A DNA stretch of 64,000 nt, taken from the NCBI GenBank assembly GCA_965230895.1, contig OZ246394.1:249316-313315 (forward strand), written 5' to 3'. The first letter of the stretch is position 1, and each line of letters starts with the position of its first letter. Source of the stretch: an uncultured Gammaproteobacteria bacterium. Lineage in GTDB: Bacteria > Patescibacteriota > Microgenomatia > Levybacterales > UBA12049. Positions 3,298 through 36,147 of this stretch are shown here, one piece after another. Both the position numbers and the translations under genes were made by a program. Under the pieces are notes generated by a model that saw nothing but the letters and a program-made list of their open reading frames with translations, had not been told where the DNA came from and did not search any database.

Positions 3298-3354
3298 AAT
3301 TGTTTTCCCTGAGCAAACGAAGTGCGTCGAAGGGTTTTAAGACTTCGACTTCGC

Positions 3355-4506
3355 TCAGTCAAAATATTGATCAATCTTATCAATATTGACGCAGATACTG
3401 ACTCGGACAAAACGTTTTCCATTTTCTCCAAATGCTGTTCCTGGAGTTACCAGGATTTGTTTCTCGTTAAGGAGCTTCATGGCATAGGATTCTGCATCTG
3501 TTTCACTATCAGGAATCTTTGCCCAGATATAAAGACTAGCTTTTGGCAATGTGAACGTGAGTCCTAGTTTTTCCAAATAGTTCGCGATAATATCTCGTCG
3601 TGCTTTATAACTTTGGATCATTGCCTTTTGCCATTCTTCATCCGGGTGATTCAAGATATATGCTCCCAATTGTTGCAATGGCCTTGCGATACCGGAATCC
3701 ATTTGCGATTTTACTTTTGCAAAGATTGCGATGATGTCTTTATTGCCTACGACCCAGCCAAGTCTGTAGCCTGCAAGAGAAGATGATTTGGAGAATGAAT
3801 TGATTTCAATGGCGACATCTTTTGCTTCTGGAATTTGTAAAATGCTTGGTGCGACATACCCGTCAAATGTTATCTCAGAATAAGCATTGTCATAAACGAT
3901 AAAGACATTATGTTCTTTTGCAAAATCTACAAGTTGTGCTAAATCTTCCATTGAAGCGATTTGACCCAATGGGTTCGATGGGAAGTTGACCCAGATGAAT
4001 TTCGTTCGATCGGTTACTTTGGATTTGATGTCTTCGATGTTGAGTTTGTACTCATCGGCTTCATCCAAGGTATAGAAGATAGCTTTTGCTCCGATCATGA
4101 TCGCGGGGCCCGCAAAGCCTTGATATCCTGGATCCGGGATCATGACCTCATCTCCTTCGTTGAGAAATGCCAATGGTAAAAGTGAAATTACCTGCTTCTC
4201 TCCAACTGAGGAATATACTTCGTCTGGCTCGAGATCTACTCCAAACCGTTTTTTATGCCATGCAATCAATGCGTCACGGAATTCTGGAAGTGGTCCATAC
4301 CCAGGATACATATGCGCATTGGATGCATTAATGAATTCTTCAAGTTTCGCAACATATTTTGCACTCGGTGGGACATCGGGAGATCCTGCCCCAAAGTTCA
4401 ATACTTTTTTCCCGGTTTCTTTCTCAACCCGAGCGACTTCTCTATTGAGTCGTGAGAAAATATATTCCGGGAAATGATTAATTCTGTTTGCTGGTGTTAT
4501 GTTCAT
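3355..4506 (-). CDS. class I/II PLP-dependent aminotransferase (aromatic/aspartate/LL-DAP aminotransferase-like)
   Basis: 383 aa. SFSKSSSLAGYRLGW contains the PLP-lysine motif (SxSKxxxxxGxRxG); the length is typical of fold-type I aminotransferases. Confidence 0.8.
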   Translation of the reverse strand: MNITPANRINHFPEYIFSRLNREVARVEKETGKKVLNFGAGSPDVPPSAKYVAKLEEFINASNAHMYPGYGPLPEFRDALIAWHKKRFGVDLEPDEVYSSVGEKQVISLLPLAFLNEGDEVMIPDPGYQGFAGPAIMIGAKAIFYTLDEADEYKLNIEDIKSKVTDRTKFIWVNFPSNPLGQIASMEDLAQLVDFAKEHNVFIVYDNAYSEITFDGYVAPSILQIPEAKDVAIEINSFSKSSSLAGYRLGWVVGNKDIIAIFAKVKSQMDSGIARPLQQLGAYILNHPDEEWQKAMIQSYKARRDIIANYLEKLGLTFTLPKASLYIWAKIPDSETDAESYAMKLLNEKQILVTPGTAFGENGKRFVRVSICVNIDKIDQYFD

Positions 4507-20902: not shown

Positions 20903-20946
20903 CCTGCCTGCCGGCAGGCAGGGGTTCGACTCCTCTCTTGGGCACC
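20903..20946 (+). other. tRNA 3'-end remnant (T-arm + 3' acceptor: GGGGTTCGACTCCTCTCTTGGGCACC) preceded by a perfect 20-bp palindrome cctgcctgccggcaggcagg
   Basis: Resembles the 3' end of the adjacent tRNA-Leu(CAG) (TTCGAGTCTCTCTCAGGGCAC) with several changes; no 5' half. Typical of duplicated att-site scars left by tRNA-targeting integrases. Confidence 0.5.
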
Positions 20947-20972: not shown

Positions 20973-21055
20973 GCGGATGTGGTGAAATGGTATACACGCT
21001 ACCTTGAGGTGGTAGTGCTCGCAAGGGCGTGGAGGTTCAACTCCTCTCATCCGCA
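20973..21055 (+). tRNA. tRNA-Leu (anticodon GAG)
   Basis: Acceptor GCGGATG/CATCCGC, anticodon stem CTACC/GGTAG with loop TTGAGGT, long variable arm, T-loop TTCAACT. The last 19 nt overlap the stop-proximal codons of the convergent recombinase gene. Confidence 0.85.
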
Positions 21056-22569
21056 CTGAAGGAGAACTCCTCCGATTCGAATGCTCGAATAGACTGATAT
21101 ATCGGACTAATTGAAGTGTTGTAGTAGTCTGGATAGCCCCATCTGAGTCCCTCAGGGAAAATTGAACACAGTAAGACACGGAGCTGGCTAAGTGTAGACA
21201 TTTGGTATGTTTTTCCTAAATTTACAAATTTCTCTTTCATAAAAGTAATAATAATTTCAAGATTATATTTAGCAAGCAAAGCATCATCCTTTGTAATATG
21301 AAGAGCTGCTATTTGATCTTCAATAAGTTTATTCTGTTCTTTGAATATTTCATCTGAATAAGTTCCATTTAAATTCTTTTGTATAAGCTGTTGACGCATT
21401 TCAGAAAGTCTCTGCATCTCTTTATCTGCTTCATCTCTGCGTTTTTGTAGTTGTGCTACTCGTGCATAATAAGTTCTTCTAAGCAGTGCTATAAAAGCGT
21501 TAAGTGCTTCTTGCGTTGGTGTTATGCCTGATAAATAATGTGCAAGTTCTTTATGTGCTTTATCAGCAGAGATAGAGGTAGGTTTTGGACATTTTTGACA
21601 ACGATAGTAAGCATACTTCATACGTTTCCCTTTACTCCATCCTCCTGTCACAGGATTGCTACATCTATGGCAAATAAGTAGTCTTCGGAGTGGAAATTCC
21701 GCATTATCCTTATTTCTCCTGGTTAATGGAATATTTATATTAGTATTTCTGCCGTCAATCGCTGCCTGAACTCGATAGAAAAGAGCTTCTGATACCATTG
21801 GCAGGTGTTGTCCTTTCACTTCTTCAGGGTACTTTTCTGAGGATAGTATCCCAATATAAAATTTATTGCGAAACATTCGACTTAATGCTTGCTCTCGTAC
21901 AATATGTTTTTTCCCAGCAAAGTTTTGTCTCACTCCCCTATCATTCATTAATTTTGCCATTTCTTTTAATGTCTTTGTTCCTGTTGCCATAAGTTCCCAT
22001 GCAGCTTTTACTTTATCCCATGTTTGTGGATTTTTGACTGCATAACCATTCTCATTTTTGTATCCTAATGGCGGTGTTCCGCTCGTAAGTCCTGCCAAAA
22101 ATCGTGCTCGTAGACCGTTTTTAGTTCGCTCACTTCGTACATCATTATCCATTTGTGCAAAGCTAGCAAGCATAGACTCAATAAAGCGTTCTGTTGGTGT
22201 ATTTCCTGTTGGTTCTGAAGCTGAAAGTATCATTATGCCATAATCTGAAAGCTTTTTCCTAATGGCTAAATAGTCTTGCAACTGTCGGGATATACGATCC
22301 AATCTGTAGACAATTAAAGCATCAATATTCTGTTTGTTCTTTCTGCAATATTCCATAAGTTCCTTAAGCACAGGTCTTCCTGAAATATTTTTTGCAGATT
22401 TCCCTTCTTCTTTAAATACCTTAATAACTGTTAACCCTTTTCTTTCTGCTTCTTGCCTGCAAATTTTTTCTTGGGTTCCGAGTGAGAAATTATCTACTTG
22501 TTCTTCGCTTGAGACTCGAATATATGCAATTGATTGTTTAGTGCCTTTTGTAAAAGTTATTGATTCCAT
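21037..22569 (-). CDS. large serine recombinase (resolvase/invertase catalytic domain + recombinase domain + zinc-ribbon/coiled-coil)
   Basis: 510 aa. IAYIRVSSEEQVDNFSLGTQE (catalytic Ser motif), ...RLDRISR..., and downstream Cys pairs (CHRCSNP...CQKC). Confidence 0.85.
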   Translation of the reverse strand: MESITFTKGTKQSIAYIRVSSEEQVDNFSLGTQEKICRQEAERKGLTVIKVFKEEGKSAKNISGRPVLKELMEYCRKNKQNIDALIVYRLDRISRQLQDYLAIRKKLSDYGIMILSASEPTGNTPTERFIESMLASFAQMDNDVRSERTKNGLRARFLAGLTSGTPPLGYKNENGYAVKNPQTWDKVKAAWELMATGTKTLKEMAKLMNDRGVRQNFAGKKHIVREQALSRMFRNKFYIGILSSEKYPEEVKGQHLPMVSEALFYRVQAAIDGRNTNINIPLTRRNKDNAEFPLRRLLICHRCSNPVTGGWSKGKRMKYAYYRCQKCPKPTSISADKAHKELAHYLSGITPTQEALNAFIALLRRTYYARVAQLQKRRDEADKEMQRLSEMRQQLIQKNLNGTYSDEIFKEQNKLIEDQIAALHITKDDALLAKYNLEIIITFMKEKFVNLGKTYQMSTLSQLRVLLCSIFPEGLRWGYPDYYNTSISPIYQSIRAFESEEFSFSADERS

Positions 22570-23299: not shown

Positions 23300-23375
23300 G
23301 CTCCTCAGTATAGACTTGAACTACAACCTTCTCGTAAACTGCGAGCTGCTCTACCAATTAAGCTACCGAGGAATA
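23300..23375 (-). tRNA. tRNA-like gene, most likely tRNA-Asn (GTT), with an atypical anticodon loop (CAGTTTA)
   Basis: Acceptor TCCTCGG/CTGAGGA (one G-U), D-arm GCTT-AATTGGTA-GAGC, T-arm TGTAG-TTCAAGT-CTATA. The anticodon stem has a 27-43 mismatch and A33/T37 in the loop, so identity is uncertain. Confidence 0.5.
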
Positions 23376-23383
23376 TTATTATC

Positions 23384-24574
23384 TTAAAATTGTAACAGAA
23401 TTTTTAGTTTCTTGACGGCTTCTTTGATTTCTTGCTTTGATGCACTTGAGAAGGAAATTCGGATATTCGAAGAATATTTATCACCGAAATAATTCCCTGG
23501 AACAATTGCTATGCCTTGGTCAAGTAATGCATCACAAAAATCTTGTGCATCACGAATCAATTTCCCTGCAATAGTTTTGCCGAAGAAAGAACTTATATTA
23601 GGAAATAAGAAGACTGCCCCTTCTCCATCAATATCTTTGAATCCTTGTATATCTCTTAATCCATCTTTAAGCAATGATTTCCTCTCACTAAATTTATTAA
23701 TTGTAGCTAAAAGAGATTTTTGATCTCCAGCCCAAGCTTCTATTGCCGCGACTTGTGCAAAAGAAACCGGGTTAGCTGTTACTTGTGCTTGTAACATCGA
23801 CATTGTCTTTATTACTTTATTATTCCCACATATAAATCCTATTCTAAACCCGCTCATTGAGTAATCTTTTGAAGTCGAACCAATCGTGAACGTTCTGTTA
23901 AATGCATCCTGCGAGATTGTTGCTATTGGAATATGTTTATTATTCCCATATGTAAAATTCGCCATTGTTTCATCAGAAATAATAAATAAATTCTTTTCAT
24001 TTGCCACATCAGCTATCATTTCAAGCGTTTTCTTTTTGTAAACACGGCCTGTGGGATTAGAAGGACTATTAATAATAATTATTTTAGTTTTTGGAGATAT
24101 AACTTCCAAAAGTTCTTTTTTTGTTGGTTCAAAATTATTCTCTTCTTGTGTATTAACAATAACTGGGATTCCACCCGCAATTTTTACTTGTTCTATATAA
24201 GTTTCCCAATAAGGAGCAAGTATTATTGTTTCATCACCCGTATTTAGAAGTGAGAAAATGCTGTTAAATAGTGCGTGTTTTGAGCCACAAGAAATAAGGC
24301 AATCAATTTGCGGATTATACTGCAAGTTATATTTTTTACGTAGCATGTGACATACTGTTTCTTTAAGTTCAATAATTCCTGAGTAAGTTGTATATTTTGT
24401 TTGGTTATCTTGAATTGCCTTAATTGCAATATCTTTAATATTTTGTGGAGTTTTTACATTAGTTTCAATTGTATCTAATCGAATAATTTTCTTGCCATTG
24501 CTTTCAAGAATTTTTATTTTCTCTTTAATAACATTTGTTGGTGAAATTCGTATGTCCTTAAGATTGTTCCGCAT
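23384..24574 (-). CDS. class I/II PLP-dependent aminotransferase (aspartate-aminotransferase fold)
   Basis: 396 aa. ...IINSPSNPTGRVY... and ...TFTIGSTSKDYSMSGFRIGF... (PLP-lysine region). AT-rich codon usage. Confidence 0.75.
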   Translation of the reverse strand: MRNNLKDIRISPTNVIKEKIKILESNGKKIIRLDTIETNVKTPQNIKDIAIKAIQDNQTKYTTYSGIIELKETVCHMLRKKYNLQYNPQIDCLISCGSKHALFNSIFSLLNTGDETIILAPYWETYIEQVKIAGGIPVIVNTQEENNFEPTKKELLEVISPKTKIIIINSPSNPTGRVYKKKTLEMIADVANEKNLFIISDETMANFTYGNNKHIPIATISQDAFNRTFTIGSTSKDYSMSGFRIGFICGNNKVIKTMSMLQAQVTANPVSFAQVAAIEAWAGDQKSLLATINKFSERKSLLKDGLRDIQGFKDIDGEGAVFLFPNISSFFGKTIAGKLIRDAQDFCDALLDQGIAIVPGNYFGDKYSSNIRISFSSASKQEIKEAVKKLKILLQF

Positions 24575-24671
24575 TGGAGTTTTATACTAAAAGTAGAGTT
24601 AATAGTTATTTTCCATCTTGAAAAAAATAGCTATGTTTGAGATTATACACTAATCGCTCTAGCTTTATATA

Positions 24672-26006
24672 ATGAAAAAAAAGTATATCATACATTTAGA
24701 GAAATTATTACAGAACAAGCATAAAGAGAATGAAGCGATTGCACTCCCCTGTTGGATAAAAGGAAAACGACTCTATAAAGACGTAATGTTTCTAGACATA
24801 ACTGATTCCACTGGCACTATTCAAGTTATTGCAAAAAAAGATCTAATGGGCGAAGAAGATTTTAAGCGTTTAAAAAATACTCCTCAGGAATCTTGTATAG
24901 AAGTAGAATGTGTTGCATCAACAGATCCAGTTAGTAAAGAAAAGAGTATTTTTATTAAGAAGTTCAATTTAGTGGGTGAATGGAAATTGAAATTACAGCC
25001 AGGACCTCGTTCTGATTTTGACGTTTTCTCCTCGGAGAACTCTGATTTTCTTCTTAAAAATAGACATCTTTATATCAGAAATCCAAAAGTAATGGCTATG
25101 TTAAAGTTTCGACATCAAATGATGGGTGCTGTACATGAGTGGTATCGAAAAAATGGATTTATAGAGATTACTGCTCCAGTTTTGACACAACTTCCTTTAT
25201 ATGAAGATGGGAGCGCGCTTTCTCTTAAAATTGATAAGGATGATATTTATCTAACGCAATGTGTAGGATTTTACTTAGAGAGTGCAGTTGCAGCATTTGA
25301 GAAAGTATATAATATTGGTCCGAGTTTTCGCGGTGAAGAAAGTAGAAGCAAACGGCATTTGATGGAATATTGGCATATCAAAGCAGAAGTCGCATTTATT
25401 AATTTAGAGGAAGGTCAAAAGATGGTTGAAGATTTATTAGCATTTATTGTTAATGATCTTATGGAGAATGGTCAAGATATTCTCAAAACGTTAAATGCTC
25501 AACCTGCGCTAGAGATATTAAAAGCACCTTTCCCTAAAATTACTTATCGTGAAGCAGTTAAATTACTTAATGATAATGGACACTCTTTTACATTTGGCAA
25601 AAGTCTGAGTTCTTTAGAAGAAGGCATTCTAGCAGAAAAGTTTACGACTCCTTTTTGGGTTGTGGGTATTCCGAAATCTTTAGAGCCATTTCCTTATGTC
25701 ATAGATCCAAAAGATGCTGAGGTCACAAGAGTCTCAGATCTTATTGCTCCAAGAGGGTATGGAGAGCTTTTAGGAGTAGCCGAAAAGATATATGATATTG
25801 ATGAACTTAACTCAAGAATGAAAGATAAAGGGAAACTTGATAATAAAAATTACAAATGGGTTCAAGAATTACGAGAATCTGGATATTTTCCACATGTTGG
25901 TTTTGGAATGGGAGTTGAAAGATTTATCCGTTATATTCTTGGGCAAGAACATGTTCGAGATGCAATACCTTTCCCTCGAGTATTTCGAAGAAAAATATAT
26001 CCATAA
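24672..26006 (+). CDS. class IIb aminoacyl-tRNA-synthetase homolog, AsnRS/AspRS-like (with N-terminal OB-fold)
   Basis: 444 aa. N-terminal OB-like segment (LPCWIKGKRLYKDVMFLDITDSTGTIQVIAKKD), motif 2-like FRGEESRSKRHLMEYWHIKAEVAF, motif 3-like GFGMGVERFIRYILG. Confidence 0.65.
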   Translation: MKKKYIIHLEKLLQNKHKENEAIALPCWIKGKRLYKDVMFLDITDSTGTIQVIAKKDLMGEEDFKRLKNTPQESCIEVECVASTDPVSKEKSIFIKKFNLVGEWKLKLQPGPRSDFDVFSSENSDFLLKNRHLYIRNPKVMAMLKFRHQMMGAVHEWYRKNGFIEITAPVLTQLPLYEDGSALSLKIDKDDIYLTQCVGFYLESAVAAFEKVYNIGPSFRGEESRSKRHLMEYWHIKAEVAFINLEEGQKMVEDLLAFIVNDLMENGQDILKTLNAQPALEILKAPFPKITYREAVKLLNDNGHSFTFGKSLSSLEEGILAEKFTTPFWVVGIPKSLEPFPYVIDPKDAEVTRVSDLIAPRGYGELLGVAEKIYDIDELNSRMKDKGKLDNKNYKWVQELRESGYFPHVGFGMGVERFIRYILGQEHVRDAIPFPRVFRRKIYP

Positions 26007-26011
26007 AGATT

Positions 26012-26521
26012 ATGACAAATACAAAATATTCTATTGAACCTCTCGACATTAAACATGCAGACCCACTTACTAATTGGTTTAATACATTTGTTGATCAAGA
26101 TCTAGGTGTTGTAGAGAATTTTCATGTAACCGTGGATTCCGAAAGGAGTTATATTGAAGATTACCTCTCTACAATTAAGACAGGCGAACCTATGTCATAT
26201 ATTATTTCCCATGATGAAATTATTGTTGGAAAAGTCGATATCCGTCCGTTTTCAAGATATATTGATAAACATGTTGTGGAGTTAGGTTTTGGAATGCTAA
26301 AGGACCATCCTGAAGCAGGTAAGCAACTCCTTCAATTTATTGAAGAACCTTTGAAGAAAAGAAATCTCGAAGTTGTACTCTATTTTATTTTAGCTCGTAA
26401 TAATTATTTTAGAGAACTTTTCAAACTATCTGGGTTTAAAGAAGTTGGTAAAATTGATAACTTTTATAAAGTAGATGAAGGTTATGACGCAAGAATTATT
26501 TTAGAAAAGATTTTGAAATAA
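26012..26521 (+). CDS. GNAT-like acetyltransferase-fold protein (tentative)
   Basis: 169 aa, 6 nt after the aaRS-like stop. Beta-strand/helix pattern and VVELGFGM... segment consistent with the acyl-CoA N-acyltransferase fold; weak. Confidence 0.35.
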   Translation: MTNTKYSIEPLDIKHADPLTNWFNTFVDQDLGVVENFHVTVDSERSYIEDYLSTIKTGEPMSYIISHDEIIVGKVDIRPFSRYIDKHVVELGFGMLKDHPEAGKQLLQFIEEPLKKRNLEVVLYFILARNNYFRELFKLSGFKEVGKIDNFYKVDEGYDARIILEKILK

Positions 26522-26559
26522 TTACTTCACTTATTGCTATATTTTCTCATTACTCAAGT

Positions 26560-27093
26560 TTACATTATATTATTAAACATAAATCCAATCATTGTTGGAG
26601 CATCAAAAATTTTACTCTTCTTGATCATATCCTGTATTTTCTTAGGCTCCACATATATAATGTCAATATCTGACTCAGAATCATCGAAATTGACCGAGTC
26701 TATCGATTGAGGTTTAGCGGCTATGAAGTGGCATACTTGTGAAGTTGCTCCTTTATTAAGCATACATTTGCCAAGATAAGTTATCTCATCTGGTTGTGCA
26801 ATAAGTCCTGTCTCTTCTTTTAATTCACGAATACCTGCTGTAGTAACATCTTCCCCTTCATGAAGTAAACCCATTGGAAATTCAGTCATACGTGCGTTTG
26901 CAAGATATCTATATTGCTCAATAAGGACATATTTATTTTTATAAACAGGAACAATTACTACAATATCATTCTTCTTATAGTGCTCATAAACACCTTCTTT
27001 ACCATTTGGAAAAACTATCTCATCGCGGAAAACTTGCATGTGTTTTCCTTTATAACACTGTTCTGAAGATATACGTTTATATTCACCTCGCAT
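26560..27093 (-). CDS. Nudix hydrolase
   Basis: GLLHEGEDVTTAGIRELKEETGL is a clear Nudix box (Gx5Ex7REUxEExGU). Confidence 0.8.
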   Translation of the reverse strand: MRGEYKRISSEQCYKGKHMQVFRDEIVFPNGKEGVYEHYKKNDIVVIVPVYKNKYVLIEQYRYLANARMTEFPMGLLHEGEDVTTAGIRELKEETGLIAQPDEITYLGKCMLNKGATSQVCHFIAAKPQSIDSVNFDDSESDIDIIYVEPKKIQDMIKKSKIFDAPTMIGFMFNNIM

Positions 27094-27102
27094 AGTTCAC
27101 GA

Positions 27103-28176
27103 TTAATTAATTTTTACATATGGACTGGCAGCATACCGTTTGCGTCCTTCTGTATTTAGCTCTCTAACCATTGTACCAGATATGTTATATCTTGGAGTAG
27201 GAAGTACAATTATTTCACTATCGAATTCTCTGCCGACTGTTTCTATAGCATCACCTACATCTAATGGATCAGCATCTCCTCGTACAGACAAAAATATAGC
27301 ATTTCCGCTATTAATTAAGTAATTAGAAACAGGATCATCTTCTCTCGCTTTGGCTATACGAGATAACAATGTATCACTCCCCATTACATGACGACCTCTT
27401 CCTTGAGAATCCATGCTTGCAACTAATTGTCTATACTCTATAACTTCTTCTACTTCTGTTAAATCACTTGGAATACCAAGCACAGTCACTCTTTCATGAT
27501 CTGCAAATCCTCTGACAAGATTATCTACTCTATCTGAAAAATTATCGCCAATAGATTTTTCAGTAGATCTTGTGATAGTACTAACCATAACTCTTCGGTC
27601 TTTTATGCCTTTATTCAATAAAACTCCTTCTACTTGTTCTGCGACTTCCGCATGTCCTACATGAGGAAATGGATTAAATGAACCTGGATATTGAGCAATT
27701 GTAACATTATCAGAACTAAGAAGCCCTTCTGCATGCCCTACTGTAAGAATCTGGCCTAATCTTGTTAAATCTCTTTCACCTGTACAAAATCCCATATTTT
27801 TCCTGTTAGCAGCTAAAAAATCTGCTACAACTTCAGGATCTCCAACTTCTGCAACATCCTCAAATTGATTTAAGAAGCTATGTGCTCGAGCTTCTGCCAT
27901 AGTGCTAAATTCGCTTCTCGGAGTTTCAGAGTCAAACTCAGATCCTCCTTTATAAGAACCTAACACTCTTCCAACTCGACCAAGTCTTTCTCCTGAACAG
28001 ATTTCTAATATATCTAAAGGTTTTTGTCCAGTACGAGCAACTCGTATTTCTTCGCCCAATAAAGTTCCCATAGGGACAGAACTTGAATCTGTTGTTAAAG
28101 GGGTGTGTAAGCGGTTTATTGATTGAAGGAAACCAATCTTATTTCTATATACTGATGCATCTGCTTCGGATCTCAT
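27103..28176 (-). CDS. nucleotidyltransferase of the HxGH cytidylyltransferase-like superfamily (PPAT/NadD-like C-terminal domain) with about 165-aa N-terminal domain of unknown function
   Basis: YPGSFNPFPHVGH (T/HxGH motif) and C-terminal ISGTMVRE (ISxTxxR motif). Confidence 0.6.
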   Translation of the reverse strand: MRSEADASVYRNKIGFLQSINRLHTPLTTDSSSVPMGTLLGEEIRVARTGQKPLDILEICSGERLGRVGRVLGSYKGGSEFDSETPRSEFSTMAEARAHSFLNQFEDVAEVGDPEVVADFLAANRKNMGFCTGERDLTRLGQILTVGHAEGLLSSDNVTIAQYPGSFNPFPHVGHAEVAEQVEGVLLNKGIKDRRVMVSTITRSTEKSIGDNFSDRVDNLVRGFADHERVTVLGIPSDLTEVEEVIEYRQLVASMDSQGRGRHVMGSDTLLSRIAKAREDDPVSNYLINSGNAIFLSVRGDADPLDVGDAIETVGREFDSEIIVLPTPRYNISGTMVRELNTEGRKRYAASPYVKIN

Positions 28177-28203
28177 ACTATATTATTGAGCAGGTTGTTA
28201 ATT

Positions 28204-29115
28204 TTAATCTATATAGCTCGGTAAAGCAATTTTGCCAAAAATTCTTTCAGACATTTGATTTAATTGTTTATAACTTTTAATTACTCCTGCTTCATTTAAT
28301 GAATGTAATACCTTATATGTATCATCATGGTTTGGAAGAATATATCGAAATCCTTTGTTATCAATTTCTTTGTGTATCCCTTTATATTTTTTGTCTACTG
28401 AAACGGGATAGAGGTCTGTTTTTTGTTTTTTAGCTATATCTTGAAACATAACCATGCTCGGATTAAACTCAATTTCTAATCTATTGCAAATCTTTTGAAT
28501 TACATTCTCTACACCTCCATCTGGATGTTCAAAAACTTTCATAACTACCATGCTTGTATCAATTCCTTGATCTTGTGCACTGATTATTGTCCCCAAAAAA
28601 CAATTATATGCTGCGATTAGATTCTTTAAAGCTAATTGTCCATATTTTTTATAAGCTTCATCCAGTGTTTTGGGATCTCTCGTTATCATCCAATATTTAA
28701 GCCAACCATTATAAATAGCAAGAGGATCTCTTGTTATTCCTAGTATCTTTGTTTTTTTTATAAATTCAGCCTCTGATACTCCTGCGTGTTCCGCCGCTAG
28801 CTGCAAAACACGGGTTGGATAGTGAACAATCATAGAGGGGGTTATTGGACCATATGTTTCTTTTAAAAATACTGATTTACCATTGCCAGGCATTTGGATA
28901 GTAATAGGTTCTTTGCCTTGATCCGTGGGGTATGCAATTGCATTTCTTAATACATCTTCACCAAATGCATCAAAACTAGATGAACATGATAGAACTTTAC
29001 TCATGGCGGTAGTTCCTCCTCTTCCTACGCCAAGCGTAATTATCATATTTGGATAACCATTGGGAAAGTGAATGTATTTCGCATAATCTTCAGGTTTCAG
29101 AAATTCTTTTTTCAT
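28204..29115 (-). CDS. PAPS-dependent sulfotransferase
   Basis: 5'-PSB-like P-loop ITLGVGRGGTTAM and 3'-PB-like LGITRDPLAIYNGW (RDP) motifs in correct order and spacing. Confidence 0.7.
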   Translation of the reverse strand: MKKEFLKPEDYAKYIHFPNGYPNMIITLGVGRGGTTAMSKVLSCSSSFDAFGEDVLRNAIAYPTDQGKEPITIQMPGNGKSVFLKETYGPITPSMIVHYPTRVLQLAAEHAGVSEAEFIKKTKILGITRDPLAIYNGWLKYWMITRDPKTLDEAYKKYGQLALKNLIAAYNCFLGTIISAQDQGIDTSMVVMKVFEHPDGGVENVIQKICNRLEIEFNPSMVMFQDIAKKQKTDLYPVSVDKKYKGIHKEIDNKGFRYILPNHDDTYKVLHSLNEAGVIKSYKQLNQMSERIFGKIALPSYID

Positions 29116-29172
29116 ATTCTAGGAGGCTGCAAAGTCTCGACAATTATATCATAATAATCTACAATTGCTTTT

Positions 29173-30903
29173 ATGAGAAATTCAAAAAAATCTGTGTCTC
29201 CAGCCCATGGTGGACTATTAAAGAACTTAATGGTTAAGGATAAAAAGCGTAAAGAAGAAATTTTGCAAAAGCTTCCAAATATTCCTCGTCTTAATCTAAG
29301 CATTAGACAATTATGTGATCTAGAACTTCTTATGAATGGCGGATTTTCTCCACTGGAAGGGTTTATGAGAAAAGAAGATTATGAGAGTGTTGTCTATAAT
29401 ATGCGGCTAAATGATGGAACATTGTGGCCAATCCCAGTAGTACTTGATGTAAATGATATTAAAAGTTACAAGCTAGGATCAGAATTACTATTATGCGATC
29501 AATATGGAAAACCACTAGCACTATTTACAATTAGTTCAATCTATGAACCTTCAAAAAGAATAGAAGCAGAAAATGTTTACGGTACAACAGATACAACTCA
29601 CTTTGGAGTAAATCAGTTGGTGGAACATACTGGAAATTTTTATTTAGGAGGGAAAGTAGAAGGTATTAATACTATTGATCATTACGATTTTACAGAAGTT
29701 AGGTTTACTCCTGAACAAATATATAAGTTGCTCAAGGAGGATAAAAATGACAAATTAATAGGATTTCAAACAAGAAATCCATTACACAAAGCCCATTATA
29801 CTATGATTCAGAAAGCTGCTGAAAAATACAAAGCAAAAGTATTAATCCATCCATCCGTTGGTATGACAAAAACTGACGACATTGACTATATTACTCGGAC
29901 TAAATCATATAAATTATTGCATAAGAATTATGCAAAGAATTTCTCATTCTTAAGTCTTTTACCTTTAGCTATGCGTATGGCGGGGCCAAGAGAAGCCTTA
30001 TGGCATGCCATTATACGAAAGAATTATGGTTGTACTCATTTTATTATAGGTAGAGATCATGCAGGTCCAGGTAAGGATAAAAATGGTACTCCTTTTTACG
30101 GAGTCTACGAAGCTCAAGAATTAGTCAAAAAATATTCTAAGGAATTAGATATTATTCCTATTTTTGTTAATGAAATGGTTTATGTTGAAGAGGCAAATGA
30201 ATATATGCAGGAAGACCAAGTTAATGAAACACACACTATTAAGAAAATTTCTGGAACTAGGTTTAGAGAAATGATTCAAAATGATGAACAAATTCCTGAA
30301 TGGTTCTCTTTCCCGGAAATAATAGCTGAGATTAAAAGAGGTGTTACTAGACAGAGAAAAGATGGTTTAACAATATTCTTTACAGGTCTTCCAAGTGCAG
30401 GTAAATCAACGATTGCTCTAAATCTCTATTATCATTTACTCGAGATTCAAGATAAAAACATTACTCTATTGGATGGTGATATTGTAAGAAACAATTTGTC
30501 GAAAGGATTAGGCTTCAGTAAAGAGGATCGAGATGCAAACATAGCACGTATTGGTTTTGTCGCAAATGAGATTACGAAGCATAGAGGAATCGCTATTTGC
30601 TCCGCAATTGCACCTTTCGAGCAAGCACGACAGTTGAATCGAAAGCTAATAAATTCAAATGGAAACTATGTAGAAGTCTATATATCAACTCCAGCAGAAA
30701 TATGTCAACAAAGAGATGTTAAAGGTTTATATAAAATGGCTTCTATGGGGAAAATTAAAGGCTTAACTGGAGTTGATGATTCTTATGAGGTACCTTCAAA
30801 TCCAGAAATGACAATAAATACTGAAAAAAGGACTCCTGAAGAATGTGTTGAAGAGATTATTAACTATCTTCTCAAAAAAAGACTTATACATGTAACTAAA
30901 TGA
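29173..30903 (+). CDS. bifunctional sulfate adenylyltransferase / adenylylsulfate (APS) kinase (PAPS synthase)
   Basis: N-terminal ATP sulfurylase motifs FQTRNPLHKAHYTM and HFIIGRDHAGPG. C-terminal APS kinase P-loop FFTGLPSAGKSTIA and ...RDANIARIGFVANE... Confidence 0.85.
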   Translation: MRNSKKSVSPAHGGLLKNLMVKDKKRKEEILQKLPNIPRLNLSIRQLCDLELLMNGGFSPLEGFMRKEDYESVVYNMRLNDGTLWPIPVVLDVNDIKSYKLGSELLLCDQYGKPLALFTISSIYEPSKRIEAENVYGTTDTTHFGVNQLVEHTGNFYLGGKVEGINTIDHYDFTEVRFTPEQIYKLLKEDKNDKLIGFQTRNPLHKAHYTMIQKAAEKYKAKVLIHPSVGMTKTDDIDYITRTKSYKLLHKNYAKNFSFLSLLPLAMRMAGPREALWHAIIRKNYGCTHFIIGRDHAGPGKDKNGTPFYGVYEAQELVKKYSKELDIIPIFVNEMVYVEEANEYMQEDQVNETHTIKKISGTRFREMIQNDEQIPEWFSFPEIIAEIKRGVTRQRKDGLTIFFTGLPSAGKSTIALNLYYHLLEIQDKNITLLDGDIVRNNLSKGLGFSKEDRDANIARIGFVANEITKHRGIAICSAIAPFEQARQLNRKLINSNGNYVEVYISTPAEICQQRDVKGLYKMASMGKIKGLTGVDDSYEVPSNPEMTINTEKRTPEECVEEIINYLLKKRLIHVTK

Positions 30904-31913
30904 AAATGTATCCAGAAGCCACGAGTATTTTTGAGTATATAAAAAAATCAGAAAATATCGTGATAAATATGCATCGTAATCCAGATCTAGACTCAGTTGG
31001 TAGTGCAAGTTCAATGTGTGAACTCTTACGGACGATGGGTAAGAAGGTAACTCTCATTTGTCCTCATAAACTAAGTAGTAAATTCTTCTTCATAAAACAT
31101 GCTCGATCTGTACTCCAAATAGACTATGCGGATTTTGATTTCACTCCTTATGACTTATTCATCTTAATTGATACAGCTAATTTCTATGTAGCATCTGATA
31201 AGCGAGATCTAACTTGGGCAAGTAAACTTACAGTACCTACTATGGTTTTAGATCATCACAAGACCAATTCAATTAAATCTACTTTTAAATTGATTGATGA
31301 GCAAGCAAATGCAGCTGGAGAAATTCTCTATTATTTGTTTGAACAATGGAAGGTTTCTTTTAATTGTGAGATTGCAACAGCTTTATATGCTTCAATTATT
31401 GGCGATACTGTTTTCTTACGCTATAAAAATAATCCGGAAAACTTATATAAAGTACTTGCTCATTTAATAGAATTAGGAGCTGATGAAAAATTAGTATTAA
31501 GCCAGTACTATGATTTCTTTTCACTTGAACATATTCAAATGTTTGGAGAGTTCTTAAAACATTTTGAGATAAATTCAACAGAAACATTCGCTTGGACAGC
31601 CCTTAATTATGAAACATATGTGCATTACAAAAAGCCTCTAGGAATACGTGAAGCTATAGCGGATGACTATGGTAGAGCTATCGGTAAAAGCAAGTTTGGG
31701 TTAGTCCTCCTTGAAGAGGAACCTGGAAAAGTTATGATGAGTTTTCGTTCATCGAAAGTAGACGTTTCTCAAGTGGCAAAGTTATTTAATGGAGGCGGGC
31801 ATGCTCATGCTGCTGGAGCCGTTATCTATGGAGATTTTGACAAAACTGTTAATAAAATTCTGAATGTAATCGAAAAATTTTTAGCTGAGAGAAGTAATAT
31901 TATTGACATCTAA
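30900..31913 (+). CDS. DHH/DHHA1 phosphoesterase, NrnA-like (candidate 3'-phosphoadenosine-5'-phosphate phosphatase / nanoRNase)
   Basis: DHH motif (MVLDHHKTN) and DHHA1 GGGHAHAAGA. Start overlaps the PAPS synthase stop (ATGA). Confidence 0.75.
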   Translation: MKMYPEATSIFEYIKKSENIVINMHRNPDLDSVGSASSMCELLRTMGKKVTLICPHKLSSKFFFIKHARSVLQIDYADFDFTPYDLFILIDTANFYVASDKRDLTWASKLTVPTMVLDHHKTNSIKSTFKLIDEQANAAGEILYYLFEQWKVSFNCEIATALYASIIGDTVFLRYKNNPENLYKVLAHLIELGADEKLVLSQYYDFFSLEHIQMFGEFLKHFEINSTETFAWTALNYETYVHYKKPLGIREAIADDYGRAIGKSKFGLVLLEEEPGKVMMSFRSSKVDVSQVAKLFNGGGHAHAAGAVIYGDFDKTVNKILNVIEKFLAERSNIIDI

Positions 31914-31971: not shown

Positions 31972-33603
31972 ATGCTTAATCAAAACGCAGTAGCAGTAAT
32001 GCGGGTTTCCTCACAGAAGTAGGGCTTTGATGGTGATTCTATTGAGCACCAAAGAGTTCAGATTGAACTTTATGCTTCAACTCGCAACATCACGATTAAA
32101 AAATATTTCATATTAATAGAGTCAGCTGCGAAAGAACAACAACCAACACAAGAGGCTATCGAGTATTGCACAAATAAAAAGAATAACATTCAGCTTCTTA
32201 TTATTAAATCTATTGATAGATTTACTCGTGGAGGAGCCTACTTCTATGAGGATATGAAAGCGAAGCTAACAAAACATCGTGTGCAGTTAGTTGATCTCTA
32301 TGGTGTGATTAACAATCAAGAGGTTAATACGCTTGAGCATCTGGGAGTGAAGTATTCATGGAGCGTCTATAATCCAAGTAAAAAATCAGAGATCCTTGAA
32401 GCAGAACGTGGTAAGGATGAGCTACGAGATATCCTATCTCGCATGATTGGTTCTGAAGTTCGTTATACACGTTTGGGATATCGTGTTCGACAAGCACCTT
32501 TTGGATATCAGAATCAACGAATAGAAACTATACATGGAAAGCGGTTTATCCTCGTACCTCATCCAATAGAATCAGTATGGGTAAAACGAATGTTTGAATT
32601 AAAAGTTCAATCGCTTTATTCAGATCAAGAAATCGTTAAGCAAATCAATCTCATGGGTTTTAGAACAAGAAAAGTATATTTCCGTGACCCTAGAAATAAG
32701 GCACGAGCAATTGGTATAAAAGGTGGCAATCAACTAAATTTGACAAGTTTTGATAAATTCCTGCGTAATCCTATCTATACAGGGATTACTGTAGAAGTAT
32801 GGACATTGCAGAAACCTATCAAATGTCAATTTGAAGGTTTAGTTTCGATAGAAACATTTAATAAAGCAAATGCAGGGAAAGTAATGATTTTTGAAGAAAA
32901 TGGAGAATTACAAATATTAAAGGGTAAGGTTCTTAAGAAAAGAATAGTTGAAACAGCTATAAGTGTGAGATATCCTTATCGAAAGTTGGTATTGTGTAGT
33001 AATGGAAGACATCCCTTCTATGGGAGTGCTTCTCGTGGTAGAGGAAACGGTTATTTCCCTGCATATCATTGTGATACTAAAAGAAGAGCTCATTATATTC
33101 GAATTCCTGTTAAAAGATTTCATGCAGCTATTATTGACTACTTACAGAGCGTGCGCATAAAGGATGAGGCAATAGAGGAATTCCATAAAACTCTTTCCGA
33201 AAGACAGAATCTTAAGATGCATGATTCTACGTTTCAAACTACTGCAATTAAGCAAAGAGTATTGCAGATTGAAAAAGAGATTTTCCTTCTTATAGACAAA
33301 ATAAAGATGTTACATTCAGTAGTAGCACTACAAGCGCTTGAAATAGATATAGAAAAGCTGAGAGTAGAAAAAGAAGAATTACTAAAGAAGGAAAAAATGG
33401 TTGCTTTACAAAAGAAAAAAGATAATATAGCGAATAATGTTGTAGTGAGTACTCTAGACAGAATACCTGAAGATGTTATTAATGATCATAACGAAATGCT
33501 TAAAAAACAGCTTTTTGAGATGCTATTTGAAGAACTGCCGAGTTATGATGATCTTTTAAATAAAACAGCCCTTTTAAGGCCAGGATTTGAGCTAGCCTTA
33601 TAG
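31972..33603 (+). pseudogene. large serine recombinase gene interrupted by an in-frame TAG at codon 17 (position of the conserved catalytic-motif Gln)
   Basis: MLNQNAVAVMRVSSQK-TAG-GFDGDSIEHQ... aligns with IRVSSEEQVDNFSLGTQ of the intact paralog. The same frame continues 94 codons to the ATG of the 449-aa ORF (32254-33603), which carries recombinase-domain and coiled-coil regions but lacks the catalytic Ser. Confidence 0.7.
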
Positions 33604-33618
33604 GGATCGAAGCTTGAA

Positions 33619-33879
33619 TCATTTATCTTTTTTAAGATTCTTTGCTACTTTCTGCATTGCATCAACAACTTTTTCAGCATATCCTTCCGTAGCATTTCTT
33701 GGATCACGTTCTGTAAGTACTTTAAGCACTGTTTCCAGTACTTTCTGTCTATTATTTCCACTTGCTACCTCTTCAAAAACAGAAGGAGAAATATGCTTTA
33801 AAAAATCTTTATAACTACTTGCCTCCATATACTTCTTTAGCTCTTCCAAACTAATATCTGTGCTTTTTATTTTCATCAT
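33619..33879 (-). CDS. hypothetical protein (86 aa)
   Basis: Helical, Lys-rich; divergent from the XRE gene. Confidence 0.4.
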   Translation of the reverse strand: MMKIKSTDISLEELKKYMEASSYKDFLKHISPSVFEEVASGNNRQKVLETVLKVLTERDPRNATEGYAEKVVDAMQKVAKNLKKDK

Positions 33880-34320: not shown

Positions 34321-36147
34321 CTATTTCTTTAAAGGTAACGAGAAACAGAATGTAGATCCTTTACCTTTTTTACTTTCGACCCAGATTTCTCCCCGATGCC
34401 GTTTAATAATCTCAGCAGAAATATATAATCCCAAACCTAAATTCTTTTTACTTTTTTTATCTCTTTCATTCATCCGGAAGTATTTTTCGAAAATTTCTTT
34501 TTGCTTTCCGCTAGGGATTCCCTCGCCAAAATCCTGGATACAAACTCCAATCCTATTTTTTTCTTTATGCATCGTAATGATAATTTCATCGTTCTTTGGC
34601 GAATATTTAACTGCATTTGTCAATAAATTTAAAATTACCTGACTCAAACGTTCTTGATCGCCAGTAATAATACATTTCTCATGAGGAGTATATTTAATTG
34701 TATGTGTATCTGTAATATATTGAAAATCCTTCACTGTTTGTGTAACTAATCCTTGTAAATCAAATTTACTTTCTCGCAAAGCTAATTTCCCAACTTCAAT
34801 TTTACTTATATCAAGAAAATCTCCTACTAACGTCACAAGCTTCTCAACCTGCGTATTTATATTTTGTAAAAAATAAGTGCTTTTCTCGTCAACATTATTT
34901 GCGAGATGTTTTTGAAGAATCTGAGCATAGGCTTTAATGCTCGTGACTGGAGTTTTTATTTCATGAGCAGCCATACTCAGAAATTCGTCTTTTTGCTTTT
35001 GCTGCTCTTTAATGTCAGTAATATCTTTGAATACTACAAAAACAAGATGCTTCTCATTATCATATACTCGATTCATGACAACTCTGTACCATTTTTGAGA
35101 TTCATCATCAAAATGTTCAAACCGCTTGCGTTTTCCTGTCTGGGCAACTTTGGCATGAAGATCGCACCACCATTGTCTATCATCACGATCGGGGTAAACT
35201 TCTCCTGCGGTTTTTCCTACAAGATTTGTGATGCCAACCTGTTTCTCCCACGCGTCGTTGACGGCTAAGAATCGATAATCGTATGAAAAGCCTTCTTTAT
35301 TAAATAGTGCTTCAATAAGGCAAGCTCCATCTTCAAGAGAGTTAAATAAAGTACGATACTTCTCTTCTGATCTTTGTACGATGCTTTCGGCTTGTACACG
35401 TTCGAGGGCTTGTGCACATTGCCTGCCGAGAGCTTGGATGAATAATCTATCTTCTTCACTAAACTTCTTGCTTGAGGAGAAACTTAAACAAAGTACACCT
35501 ATTATTTTCTTATCTATTACTAGTGGTGCTGCTGCAAAAGATGTATTTTCACTTGCCTGCGCAATTTTAATTGTAAGTGGGTATCGTATCTTTCCTTCCT
35601 CTATCGATTCGATGAAGATAACATTTCCGGTCCGTACTGCATCCGCAAGATGAATTGGCGCTGTAATTGGCATATTATTCCAGTGATTGAGTTCGCGTTT
35701 TTTAAATCCAATAGCATGGAGTATTTTAAGCATCTGCCCAGAATCATCAAGGAGGTATATGAGCCCACTTTGGGCTTGCATTGTTTCCATCCCTTGTTTA
35801 ATAAGTATGTCGGCGATATCCAGAGACGTATGTGCCCCAGAAAGCTCATTAATCAGAAATTGGAATCGAGCTAAGCGTTCAATTGCTCGTTCGAAATCAT
35901 GTTTAAAGAAATCTATACTTGTTCCTTGTGAAAGACTTGGTTGGCTTGTGTCTGTACCCATAAGCTGGAGGACATCATCTCTTTTATATCTTCGATCTCC
36001 CCTCTTACCAAATCTAATCGCTTTTAAAATACCATTTTTATCCCAAAGTCTCAGTGTGTTTGGATGAACCTTTAGAATATTACTTGTTTGTTTAAAAGTG
36101 AGAAGTTCTTCTTGAGGTATATTATAATTTGCCATTTTACTTACCAA
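34321..36147 (-). CDS. sensor histidine kinase with N-terminal MerR/excisionase-type DNA-binding HTH, GAF and PAS domains
   Basis: N-term LLTFKQTSNILKVHPNTLRLWDKNGILKAIRFGKRGDRRY (HTH_17-like). Central GAF/PAS-like segments. HisKA H-box HEIKTPVTSIKAYAQIL. HATPase N/G boxes (LLTNAVKYSP..., DFGEGIP..., GLGLYISAEII). Confidence 0.75.
   Translation of the reverse strand: MVSKMANYNIPQEELLTFKQTSNILKVHPNTLRLWDKNGILKAIRFGKRGDRRYKRDDVLQLMGTDTSQPSLSQGTSIDFFKHDFERAIERLARFQFLINELSGAHTSLDIADILIKQGMETMQAQSGLIYLLDDSGQMLKILHAIGFKKRELNHWNNMPITAPIHLADAVRTGNVIFIESIEEGKIRYPLTIKIAQASENTSFAAAPLVIDKKIIGVLCLSFSSSKKFSEEDRLFIQALGRQCAQALERVQAESIVQRSEEKYRTLFNSLEDGACLIEALFNKEGFSYDYRFLAVNDAWEKQVGITNLVGKTAGEVYPDRDDRQWWCDLHAKVAQTGKRKRFEHFDDESQKWYRVVMNRVYDNEKHLVFVVFKDITDIKEQQKQKDEFLSMAAHEIKTPVTSIKAYAQILQKHLANNVDEKSTYFLQNINTQVEKLVTLVGDFLDISKIEVGKLALRESKFDLQGLVTQTVKDFQYITDTHTIKYTPHEKCIITGDQERLSQVILNLLTNAVKYSPKNDEIIITMHKEKNRIGVCIQDFGEGIPSGKQKEIFEKYFRMNERDKKSKKNLGLGLYISAEIIKRHRGEIWVESKKGKGSTFCFSLPLKK

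Follow-up and report, generated by a model that had tools for sequence, protein, structure and literature searches.

A rare mobile cassette of Patescibacteria combines sulfation genes with an asparaginyl-tRNA synthetase and a variant tRNA-Asn

The analysis of a 64-kb stretch of contig OZ246394.1 (GenBank assembly GCA_965230895.1), hereafter called the window, revealed a cassette of eight protein-coding genes and one tRNA gene, which has been found in several lineages of the candidate phyla radiation (CPR)/Patescibacteria. It consists of three modules. Module A comprises an unusual tRNA-Asn, an aminotransferase, an asparaginyl-tRNA synthetase (AsnRS), and a protein of the GCN5-related N-acetyltransferase (GNAT) type, module B a predicted sulfotransferase, a nucleotidyltransferase-like protein, and a Nudix hydrolase, and module C a bifunctional ATP sulfurylase/adenosine 5'-phosphosulfate (APS) kinase (Sat/CysC) and a DHH phosphoesterase. 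We tentatively propose, with a probability of roughly 40%, that the cassette directs the sulfation of a nucleotide-linked cytoplasmic acceptor, dependent on 3'-phosphoadenosine 5'-phosphosulfate (PAPS), and that it travels together with a separate, probably non-housekeeping Asn-tRNA unit.

An initial annotation of this DNA had described eight genes in four short transcription units of low GC content. All eight open reading frames (ORFs) were recovered at exactly these positions (Table 1), and judged by orientation they form four units, i.e., the aminotransferase gene (-), the AsnRS and GNAT genes (+), the genes for the sulfotransferase-like protein, the HxGH protein, and the Nudix hydrolase (-), and the genes for Sat/CysC and the DHH protein (+). 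The GC content of the cluster is 0.336, compared to 0.390 in the remainder of the window (Mann-Whitney p = 3e-9), and the 8.5-kb stretch with the lowest GC content of the window falls in it. The tetranucleotide distance has its maximum at 20-35 kb. Both analyses identify the cluster as the compositional outlier of the window, and the anomaly spans about 21 kb to about 36 kb. The gene for tRNA-Asn(GUU), which was absent from the initial annotation, is located 11 nt downstream of the aminotransferase gene on the same strand.

Each of the new protein families is represented by about 10 clusters among 5.8 billion, and all identifiable carriers are CPR bacteria. Scans of genome and metagenome collections with the sulfotransferase and GNAT profiles retrieved only one and two loci, respectively, and no relatives were detected in IMG/VR and in phage and plasmid collections. 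No published description of this gene combination was found in the literature. The recurrent gene order is sulfotransferase, nucleotidyltransferase, Nudix hydrolase, GNAT, AsnRS (convergent), and aminotransferase. Loci with the full order stem from a sister strain (L005/L029/L030), from Chisholmbacteria of Rifle-type groundwater (L009-L015), and from a third lineage (L016-L019). L019 (CAYPEN010000009.1), with the label "uncultured Gammaproteobacteria bacterium", is the only contig of a species-representative genome that contains the cassette. Nevertheless, its cassette proteins resemble CPR sequences most closely, and L016 encodes the same proteins (P0019, P0036) together with genes of a type IV secretion system (T4SS) and small ORFs. 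The taxonomic label of this metagenome-assembled genome may be wrong.

The modules are also found separately. Module B, which has the order sulfotransferase, nucleotidyltransferase, Nudix hydrolase with gaps of 9-27 bp in every lineage, occurs alone in L008, and three loci contain module A without sulfation genes. In one of them (L020) module A is embedded in a mur/dcw cluster, where it is bordered by MraY and Ddl, and the GNAT gene follows 2 bp downstream of ddl. In the second (L022) it is accompanied by MurA, MurB, a Mur ligase, and a FemAB gene, and in the third (L028) an aminotransferase-Ddl-GNAT operon is convergent with the AsnRS gene. From lineage to lineage, the pairwise identities of the A proteins agree with those of the B proteins, and therefore the two modules travelled together where they co-occur. 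Each of them has been found alone, and therefore one joint pathway is not required.

The initial annotation regarded the cluster as cargo of an island, and the comparison of the loci bears this out. The gene order is shared across lineages, while the flanks are wholly different, so that the cassette is not a core locus. In Chisholmbacteria it is flanked by a ribosomal-protein operon, in L016 by T4SS genes, and in the sister strain it sits between conjugation genes, with a relaxase-like gene and the T4 coupling protein on one side and TrbC, TrbL, TraC, and VirB4 on the other side. The GC content of the cassette versus its flanks is 0.34 versus 0.39 in the window, 0.36-0.40 versus 0.505 in Chisholmbacteria, and 0.36-0.39 versus 0.44 in L008, and for the module A trio of L020 it is 0.36-0.39 versus 0.41-0.44. 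The characteristics of mobile-element cargo were thus found, namely, an atypical composition, recombinase or conjugation genes at the borders, and a variable insertion context. Because the cassette is AT-richer than four hosts and resides in conjugation or recombinase contexts, the view is supported that it is horizontally mobile cargo among CPR/Patescibacteria and not a core locus.

The description of the island as recombinase-bounded was correct for one side. The left serine recombinase is intact (GC content 0.368), and the 3' end of its gene overlaps with the 3' end of the tRNA-Leu(GAG) gene at the left margin of the region with deviant composition. The frame of the right recombinase is broken by an in-frame TAG at 32020-32022, directly after the catalytic RVSSQK, and the annotated 449-aa ORF is the remnant downstream of this codon. 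A search around the island revealed no direct repeats of the attachment site (att) type. As att repeats were not found and the right recombinase is a pseudogene, the island boundaries are compositional only. In addition, no duplicated 3' end of tRNA-Leu(GAG) is present elsewhere in the window, and therefore an integration site at this tRNA gene is not proven. An isolated fragment that resembles the 3' half of a tRNA (GGTTCGACTCCTCTCTTGGGCACC, 20923-20946, +) is situated between the genes for tRNA-Leu(CAG) and tRNA-Leu(GAG), just left of the recombinase gene. It has no second copy within the window and could have been left behind by an integration or a rearrangement.

In module C, Sat/CysC, which had been annotated as a fused ATP sulfurylase/APS kinase, passes the cut-off of the bifunctional equivalog NF004040 (779.3 bits versus 669), has the Pfam domains ATP-sulfurylase, APS_kinase, and PUA_2, and contains all three motifs quoted for it before, i.e., QTRNPLH at residue 199, GRDHAG at 293, and GLPSAGKS at 405. 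Its gene is divergent from the sulfotransferase operon, with a spacer of 57 bp, and it adjoins the sulfotransferase gene in the window, the sister strain, and Chisholmbacteria, the Sat/CysC of the latter being only 45% identical. The start of the DHH gene overlaps with the Sat/CysC stop codon (ATGA), and this arrangement is retained in L004. The DHH protein had been called NrnA-like; the DHH and DHHA1 domains and the motifs (DHH at residue 118, GGGH at 298) agree with this assignment, but the score of 97.9 bits is below the cut-off of 350 of the NrnA equivalog NF053633. Because its gene is translationally coupled to that of Sat/CysC, the enzyme is most plausibly a phosphatase of 3'-phosphoadenosine 5'-phosphate (pAp), the by-product of PAPS-dependent sulfation. 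The earlier proposal of a module for donor synthesis, transfer, and by-product clearance is the best reading of the region 28204-31913.

The sulfotransferase of module B had been recognized by motifs that resemble the 5'-phosphosulfate-binding (5'-PSB) and the 3'-phosphate-binding (3'-PB) motif. The motifs and the fold were corroborated, but the protein of 303 aa has no Pfam or NCBIfam match, so that the threshold of a curated hidden Markov model (HMM) is not reached. It has only 10 relatives (51-86% identity) among the 5.8 billion clusters, and a profile of the family yielded 12 hits with 1.84 billion representatives, only two of them below E 1e-10. The protein exhibits the alpha/beta fold with a P-loop-like core that is characteristic of sulfotransferases. 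The residues R32-G33-G34-T35-T36 are invariant across the family and form a 5'-phosphosulfate loop like that of tyrosylprotein sulfotransferases (TPST), with Thr replacing the Walker lysine. The 5'-PSB-like motif reads GV[GA]RGGTTAM and the 3'-PB-like motif T[RK][DE]P; T128, [RK]129-[DE]130, and P131 are conserved over 10 family members where the 3'-phosphate-binding segment is expected. Only one distant relative (P0022) passes Sulfotransfer_1 (26.3 bits versus 22). Judged by its motifs and fold, the 303-aa protein is a real, divergent TPST-like sulfotransferase of the PAPS type and represents a new family. That its gene neighbors Sat/CysC in three lineages lends indirect support to a transfer of sulfate from PAPS. 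In another distant relative (P0023, 633 aa) the sulfotransferase-like domain (residues 15-209) is fused to two Pfam Tad4 (Thoeris inhibitor) repeats. This fusion was dropped as a functional lead, because Tad4 is described as an active-site-blocking protein.

The second protein of module B, which has a length of 357 aa, has 9 relatives in the 5.8 billion clusters, one of which is annotated as a hypothetical protein of Candidatus Chisholmbacteria. Two motifs, PGSFNPFPHVGH, in which the His is preceded by an additional residue, and ISGTxVR, do not vary among 9 family members, and therefore the C-terminal half of the 357-aa protein is assigned to the HxGH nucleotidyltransferase superfamily. This agrees with the initial annotation, as does the N-terminal region of about 150 aa, for which no recognizable relative was found. 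The cut-off of PF01467 is not reached (18.3 versus 21), and six of the nine family members match CTP_transf_like weakly. The structure model is poor (pLDDT, the predicted local distance difference test score, is 47). Comparison of the family with NadD, PPAT, TagD, and NMNAT sequences using hhalign resulted in motif-level matches only (probability <=31%), and a subfamily assignment on this basis was dropped. Searches of PDB sequences gave chance-level matches only, both with the two proteins of 303 and 357 aa and with the profiles of their families.

The third protein is a Nudix hydrolase, as had been annotated (PF00293, 41.9 bits versus 21.1), and its closest PDB matches are ADP-ribose pyrophosphatases (E 4e-18). 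The Pro of an SPG sequence downstream of the Nudix box is a marker for ADP-ribose specificity. The family lacks this conserved Pro and has an invariant NKG where the aligned ADP-ribose pyrophosphatase of Bacillus has SPG. Nucleotidyltransferase and Nudix hydrolase might alternatively form a pair for the salvage of NAD or ADP-ribose, similar to a split NadM-Nudix protein, and the sulfotransferase-like protein might act on a pyridine nucleoside or an ADP-ribose derivative. The resemblance of the motifs GxFxPxxHxGH and SGTxxR to NMN adenylyltransferases, the affinity of the Nudix hydrolase to ADP-ribose pyrophosphatases, and the gene adjacency, which is reminiscent of NadM-Nudix fusions, would fit such a pair. 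However, the low hhalign probabilities and the Lys in place of the Bacillus Pro speak against it, no genes for PnuC, NadV, or NadE are located nearby, and no sulfated NAD metabolite is known, which makes this explanation quite improbable.

The first enzyme of module A had correctly been identified as a class I aminotransferase. Its best NCBIfam match is the archaeal-type aspartate aminotransferase NF041091, with 315 bits below the cut-off of 550, and the orthologs are 54-71% identical across all module A loci. The synthetase had been described as an AsnRS/AspRS-like homolog. It indeed belongs to the class II aminoacyl-tRNA synthetases (aaRSs), but "aaRS-like" understates its nature. The protein contains the Pfam domains tRNA-synt_2 (E 1e-59) and tRNA_anti-codon (E 5e-7), it shares FRGEESRSKRHLMEYWH and GFGMGVER identically with generic CPR AsnRS, and its identity is about 50% with hundreds of Patescibacteria proteins, which have been designated asparagine--tRNA ligase by their sources. 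Because all class II motifs and 137 columns that are conserved in the generic enzymes are kept, this comparison indicates that it is a real, near-canonical AsnRS of a distinct, rare clade, and not a degenerate aaRS-like enzyme. The scores are below the NCBIfam asnS cut-offs (318.7 versus 414; 300.2 versus 342.6). In a neighbor-joining (NJ) tree the cassette AsnRS, with about 10 clusters, are monophyletic, those linked to mur/ddl genes branch at the base, those linked to sulfation genes are derived, and the branch lengths are ordinary. Eight substitutions are specific for the clade (G80C, H207A, R289K, R335K, A355S, C405F/Y, V406F, and W421Y). A truncated aaRS of 386 aa in Chisholmbacteria was rejected as a gene-calling artefact; the frame runs upstream to a GTG and encodes 444 aa with the OB (oligonucleotide-binding) domain.

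The GNAT-like protein has orthologs in every module A locus. As a single sequence it is below the Pfam cut-off (20.7 versus 24.3), but the profile of the family matches solved GNATs at E 4e-7, so that the fold assignment of the initial annotation holds at the family level. In the loop that binds the acetyl-CoA pyrophosphate (typically Q/R-x-x-G-x-G/A) only G103 is invariant, and the loop is two residues shorter than that of 2ge3 in the profile alignment. The generic CPR asnS genes that were examined are arranged in tandem with aspS, and neither a GNAT nor an aminotransferase gene accompanies them. In L025 (3015-5660) and L027 (6001-8646) asnS is directly followed by a second class IIb synthetase gene, presumably aspS; a canonical tRNA-Asn gene is found about 0.9 kb downstream of the synthetase pair in L025 and L026, and an Asp/Glu racemase gene is near the pair in L027.

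The anticodon loop of the cassette tRNA-Asn reads C-A-G-U-U-U-A. The near-universal U33 is thus replaced by A33, and A37 by U37, while the anticodon GUU and the discriminator G are kept; generic CPR tRNA-Asn near asnS-aspS has a canonical C-U-GUU-A-A loop. The variant loop is shared by the sister strain (L029) and by the divergent mur-cluster locus L020, the AsnRS of which is only 71% identical. The tRNAs of the window and of L020 have seven differences, and all stem changes keep the pairing (U4-A69 to C-G; in the T stem G·U to G-C and U-A to U·G), and this speaks for selection on a functional RNA. The Chisholmbacteria loci and L016, L022, and L028 did not yield the variant tRNA; ARAGORN at low stringency revealed intragenic false positives only. 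U33 forms the U-turn of the anticodon loop, and A37 carries N6-threonylcarbamoyladenosine (t6A) in tRNAs that decode ANN codons. Because both nucleotides are lost, the variant tRNA-Asn is a candidate for a non-ribosomal aminoacyl carrier, for a donor in the manner of SbzA (see below), or for a mobile-element tRNA that evades nucleases.

The last of these roles would make module A a translation-protection system of a mobile element, with a tRNA-Asn that escapes anticodon nucleases or toxins by its altered loop and an AsnRS that charges it, while modules B and C would be hitch-hiking cargo. A33 and U37 flank an unchanged GUU and are conserved over divergent lineages, and the cassette has a conjugative-element or recombinase setting. 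However, the always-linked aminotransferase and GNAT genes and the embedding in mur/ddl clusters are left unexplained, the tRNA is absent from three module A lineages, and the loss of the U-turn nucleotide is expected to impair decoding, so that we consider translation protection improbable. A precedent is that phage tRNAs have been proposed to escape anticodon nucleases by loop mutations (PMC10264068). These mobile-element tRNAs resemble the cassette tRNA in that the anticodon is kept and the loop is mutated; a change of U33 was not found in the main text of that study. In contrast to them, the cassette tRNA is cargo of a CPR conjugative element or island and is accompanied by its own synthetase, an aminotransferase, and a GNAT.

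It could also be argued that the cassette is an ordinary housekeeping locus inherited by descent, with the only AsnRS and tRNA-Asn of the genome and core neighbors. The AsnRS is near-canonical, the NJ topology could follow the species phylogeny, no other class IIb aaRS is encoded in the 64-kb window, and generic CPR genomes also have tRNA-Asn near asnS. Furthermore, at 1535-4506 (-) of the window the gene for the PheRS alpha subunit lies side by side with those for a prephenate dehydratase and for another class I aminotransferase, which shares 23% identity with the cassette enzyme. This is a further example of an aaRS gene beside genes for enzymes that form its amino acid from a keto acid, and such pairing is therefore customary in this genome. 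This view is nevertheless improbable. In four hosts, whose GC content ranges from 0.36 to 0.50, the flanks are less AT-rich than the cassette, and they are wholly different from lineage to lineage (ribosomal operon, T4SS, recombinases). The AsnRS clade comprises about 10 clusters, compared to hundreds for generic CPR AsnRS, and the tRNA-Asn lacks U33 and A37.

The firmest part of the mechanism that we propose is the supply and use of PAPS: Sat/CysC converts sulfate and ATP via APS to PAPS, the new sulfotransferase would use it, and the coupled DHH enzyme most plausibly clears the by-product pAp. The nucleotidyltransferase may couple AMP or another nucleoside monophosphate to a phosphorylated small molecule, the sulfotransferase would sulfate this nucleotide-linked cytoplasmic acceptor, and the Nudix hydrolase may strip the nucleotide handle or clear side products. 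A nucleotide-linked acceptor is suggested because the sulfotransferase gene is always followed by the nucleotidyltransferase gene and then by that of an ADP-ribose-type Nudix hydrolase. Module A would be an older, separable unit with cell-wall synthesis as its ancestral context. Its aminotransferase would make Asp, the AsnRS would charge the module's own unusual tRNA, and the GNAT would transfer or N-acylate the aminoacyl group. Because module A is found beside ddl and mur genes elsewhere, a cell-envelope precursor is its most likely target. The identities of the genes, the modular make-up, the rarity and mobility of the cassette, and the conservation of its unusual tRNA are shown directly, whereas the acceptor, the sequence in which the enzymes act, and any feeding of module A into modules B and C are inferred.

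Several observations weigh against the proposed sulfation of a nucleotide-linked acceptor. The cassette encodes no exporter, glycosyltransferase, or membrane protein that would point to a final destination. The cassette AsnRS may be the working AsnRS of the host. Modules A and B each occur alone, and two carriers of module B (L008 and L016) have no Sat/CysC gene within 5-10 kb. The Sat/CysC gene of Chisholmbacteria contains two in-frame nonsense codons (W291, TGG to TGA, and K463, AAR to TAA), which are identical in three independent assemblies, while the remaining six cassette genes are intact; this could be due to recent pseudogenisation or to read-through. The separate occurrence of A and B, the two B lineages without a nearby Sat/CysC, and the nonsense codons weaken the notion of a strict eight-gene pathway.

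Well-known bacterial loci for PAPS-dependent sulfation are NodPQ/NodH of rhizobia, RaxPQ/RaxST of Xanthomonas, and CysDNC/Stf0 of mycobacteria. In contrast to them, the cassette has a sulfotransferase outside of existing HMM families, a CPR host, and translational coupling between the genes for the PAPS synthase and a putative pAp phosphatase. The partners of its sulfation genes are nucleotide enzymes and the AsnRS set, whereas those of the known loci are glycosyltransferases, peptides, and lipid enzymes. With NodPQ/NodH-type loci the PAPS logic alone is in common. The initial annotation had considered such a NodPQ/NodH-style sulfation as an alternative, and one could envisage that a surface glycan, a lipid, or a wall polymer is sulfated in the NodPQ/NodH or Stf manner, while module A separately adds Asn or Asp to peptidoglycan precursors. 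Module A repeatedly adjoins ddl, mur ligases, and a FemAB gene, and the nucleotidyltransferase motifs would also suit cytidylyltransferases that activate wall-polymer precursors. However, specific support was not obtained. The conserved cassette has no glycosyltransferase, acyltransferase of the glycan or lipid type, flippase or other transporter, lipid enzyme, or membrane protein at any locus, its proteins are all apparently soluble, and the Nudix hydrolase is of the ADP-ribose type and no obvious wall enzyme. Envelope sulfation is therefore regarded as unlikely.

For module A alone, the staphylococcal cell-wall tRNA-Gly species, which are used together with Fem transferases, offer a further comparison. 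These non-proteinogenic tRNAs deviate from conserved features. As in module A, which lies beside ddl/mur and, in L022, FemAB genes, a deviant tRNA is encoded with a system for aminoacylation or transfer and is linked to peptidoglycan genes. The deviation in module A is, however, in the anticodon loop (A33, U37) and not in the T or D arm, and the candidate transferase is a single small GNAT and no Fem protein.

The initial annotation had also drawn a parallel to sulfamoyl-adenosine clusters. In the cluster for ascamycin/dealanylascamycin of Streptomyces sp. JCM9888 a sulfate adenylyltransferase, an APS kinase, and a sulfotransferase have been proposed for the 5' sulfation of adenosine, two aaRS homologs (AlaRS-like) are encoded, and the product class inhibits aaRSs (PMC4257720). 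The cassette shares with it the sulfate activation, a sulfotransferase, and the aaRS homolog. Its aaRS is a full AsnRS with its own tRNA, and its enzyme dependent on pyridoxal phosphate (PLP) is a class I aminotransferase, whereas the presumed aminotransferase of the ascamycin cluster, AcmN, is an amidinotransferase homolog (PMC4257720). The second precedent is the cluster for SB-203208/altemicidin (sbz), in which the IleRS-like SbzA uses Ile-tRNA to move the aminoacyl residue non-ribosomally onto a sulfur-containing group, forming an aminoacyl-sulfonamide, and GNATs perform acyl transfers (PMC6331615). The combination of an aaRS homolog and GNATs in one set is similar to the cassette. However, the sulfonamide of sbz is derived from cysteine via a cupin dioxygenase, compared to PAPS in the cassette, and sbz relies on carrier proteins and adenylating enzymes, both of which are missing from the cassette, and has no dedicated tRNA.

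By analogy, the cassette might make a sulfated or sulfamoylated aminoacyl-nucleoside that mimics Asn-AMP or Asp-AMP, in the manner of ascamycin or SB-203208, with the AsnRS as a resistant copy or a tRNA-dependent donor and the GNAT as a detoxifier or for acyl transfer. PAPS synthesis, a sulfotransferase, nucleotide enzymes, an aaRS, a GNAT, and a PLP enzyme are indeed united in one rare mobile cassette, the eight clade-specific AsnRS substitutions are at positions conserved in CPR, two of them just before motif 3, and the private tRNA-Asn could act as a donor. However, ascamycin also needs a sulfatase, an acylsulfatase, the amidinotransferase-type AcmN, radical S-adenosylmethionine (SAM) enzymes, nucleoside-forming enzymes, and a transporter of the major facilitator superfamily (MFS) (PMC4257720), and such genes are present in none of the cassette loci, so that the analogy as initially stated is generic only. 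The cassette contains no antibiotic-type transporter or regulator, the divergence of the AsnRS is not accelerated, module A occurs without sulfation genes in mur operons, co-transcribed with ddl, and module B occurs without A. An aminoacyl-nucleoside product of this type thus has a low probability.

A related and bolder view is that module A is a dedicated non-ribosomal aminoacyl-tRNA system, with a private AsnRS, a decoding-impaired tRNA-Asn, the PLP enzyme, and a transferase with GNAT fold, which together with the sulfotransferase and the nucleotidyltransferase builds a sulfated aminoacyl-nucleotide (a mimic of Asn- or Asp-adenylate or an envelope precursor) on CPR conjugative elements. We consider this rather unlikely. 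If true, it would be the first such secondary-metabolite-like pathway in Patescibacteria and would reveal a new class of specialized tRNA.

Several further features of the window are outside of the cassette. A gene for a sensor histidine kinase (34321-36147, -) lies within the AT-rich region and encodes an N-terminal MerR/HTH_17 domain followed by GAF, PAS, HisKA, and HATPase domains. Beside it are an ORF of 86 aa (33619-33879, -) and a 66-aa gene of the HTH_3 family (gene calls of the identical contig L001), and no response regulator gene was seen near it. The island is flanked by genes for ThrRS, trigger factor, DUF5660, CysRS, PolA, Obg, and PheS, and this gene content looks like that of a small-genome, Patescibacteria-type chromosome; the contig of the source record has a length of 1.61 Mb. 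An Rfam scan of 19-40 kb detected tRNAs only and no riboswitch, promoter and terminator scans gave no more than the level of shuffled sequences, and PADLOC yielded no match to a defense system apart from a weak Nudix hit.

Table 1. Positions of the cassette genes, of the recombinase and tRNA genes at the island edge, and of selected copies in other loci.
Feature	Locus	Position	Strand	Evidence or remark
tRNA-Asn(GUU), variant loop	window	23300-23372	-	ARAGORN fold; Rfam tRNA 44.9 bits; immediately 3' of aminotransferase
Class I PLP aminotransferase	window	23384-24574	-	Pfam Aminotran_1_2 E 1e-63
AsnRS, N-terminal OB anticodon-binding domain kept	window	24672-26006	+	Pfam, NCBIfam, NJ tree
Small GNAT-fold protein	window	26012-26521	+	weak Pfam Acetyltransf_3/4; profile versus PDB
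Nudix hydrolase, ADP-ribose/ADP-sugar pyrophosphatase family	window	26560-27093	-	Pfam NUDIX E 1e-10; PDB match
HxGH-type nucleotidyltransferase-like protein, 357 aa, new family	window	27103-28176	-	invariant motifs
Predicted divergent PAPS-type sulfotransferase, 303 aa, new family	window	28204-29115	-	fold and motifs
Bifunctional ATP sulfurylase/APS kinase (Sat/CysC)	window	29173-30903	+	NCBIfam NF004040, motifs
DHH/DHHA1 phosphoesterase, NrnA-like	window	30900-31913	+	Pfam DHH E 1e-16, DHHA1 E 5e-10
tRNA-Leu(GAG)	window	20973-21056	+	ARAGORN; Rfam 54.6 bits
Large serine recombinase, intact	window	21037-22569	-	Pfam Resolvase E 2e-33, Recombinase E 3e-10, Zn ribbon E 1.6e-4
Second large serine recombinase, pseudogene	window	31975-33603	+	tblastn with recombinase 1; frame analysis
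Variant tRNA-Asn	L029	5441-5513	-	immediately 3' of aminotransferase
Variant tRNA-Asn	L020	8669-8741	-	immediately 3' of aminotransferase
Chisholmbacteria Sat/CysC with nonsense codons	L012	6869-8656
Chisholmbacteria Sat/CysC with nonsense codons	L013	4915-6702
Chisholmbacteria Sat/CysC with nonsense codons	L015	3351-5138

The modular anatomy, the two protein families that are invisible to existing HMMs, the conjugative-element context, and the conserved non-canonical tRNA-Asn are new. CPR/Patescibacteria are thought to be minimal in their metabolism and to have almost no specialized chemistry. The rare mobile cassette, in contrast, spends eight genes and a tRNA on sulfation, new enzyme families, and a private AsnRS/tRNA pair. 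As a candidate for a non-ribosomal tRNA or for one that evades nucleases, the tRNA-Asn can be tested directly. With the identity of the sulfated product, a new sulfotransferase family and a new substrate class would be gained, and the product could show how episymbionts modify their envelope or act on hosts or competitors.

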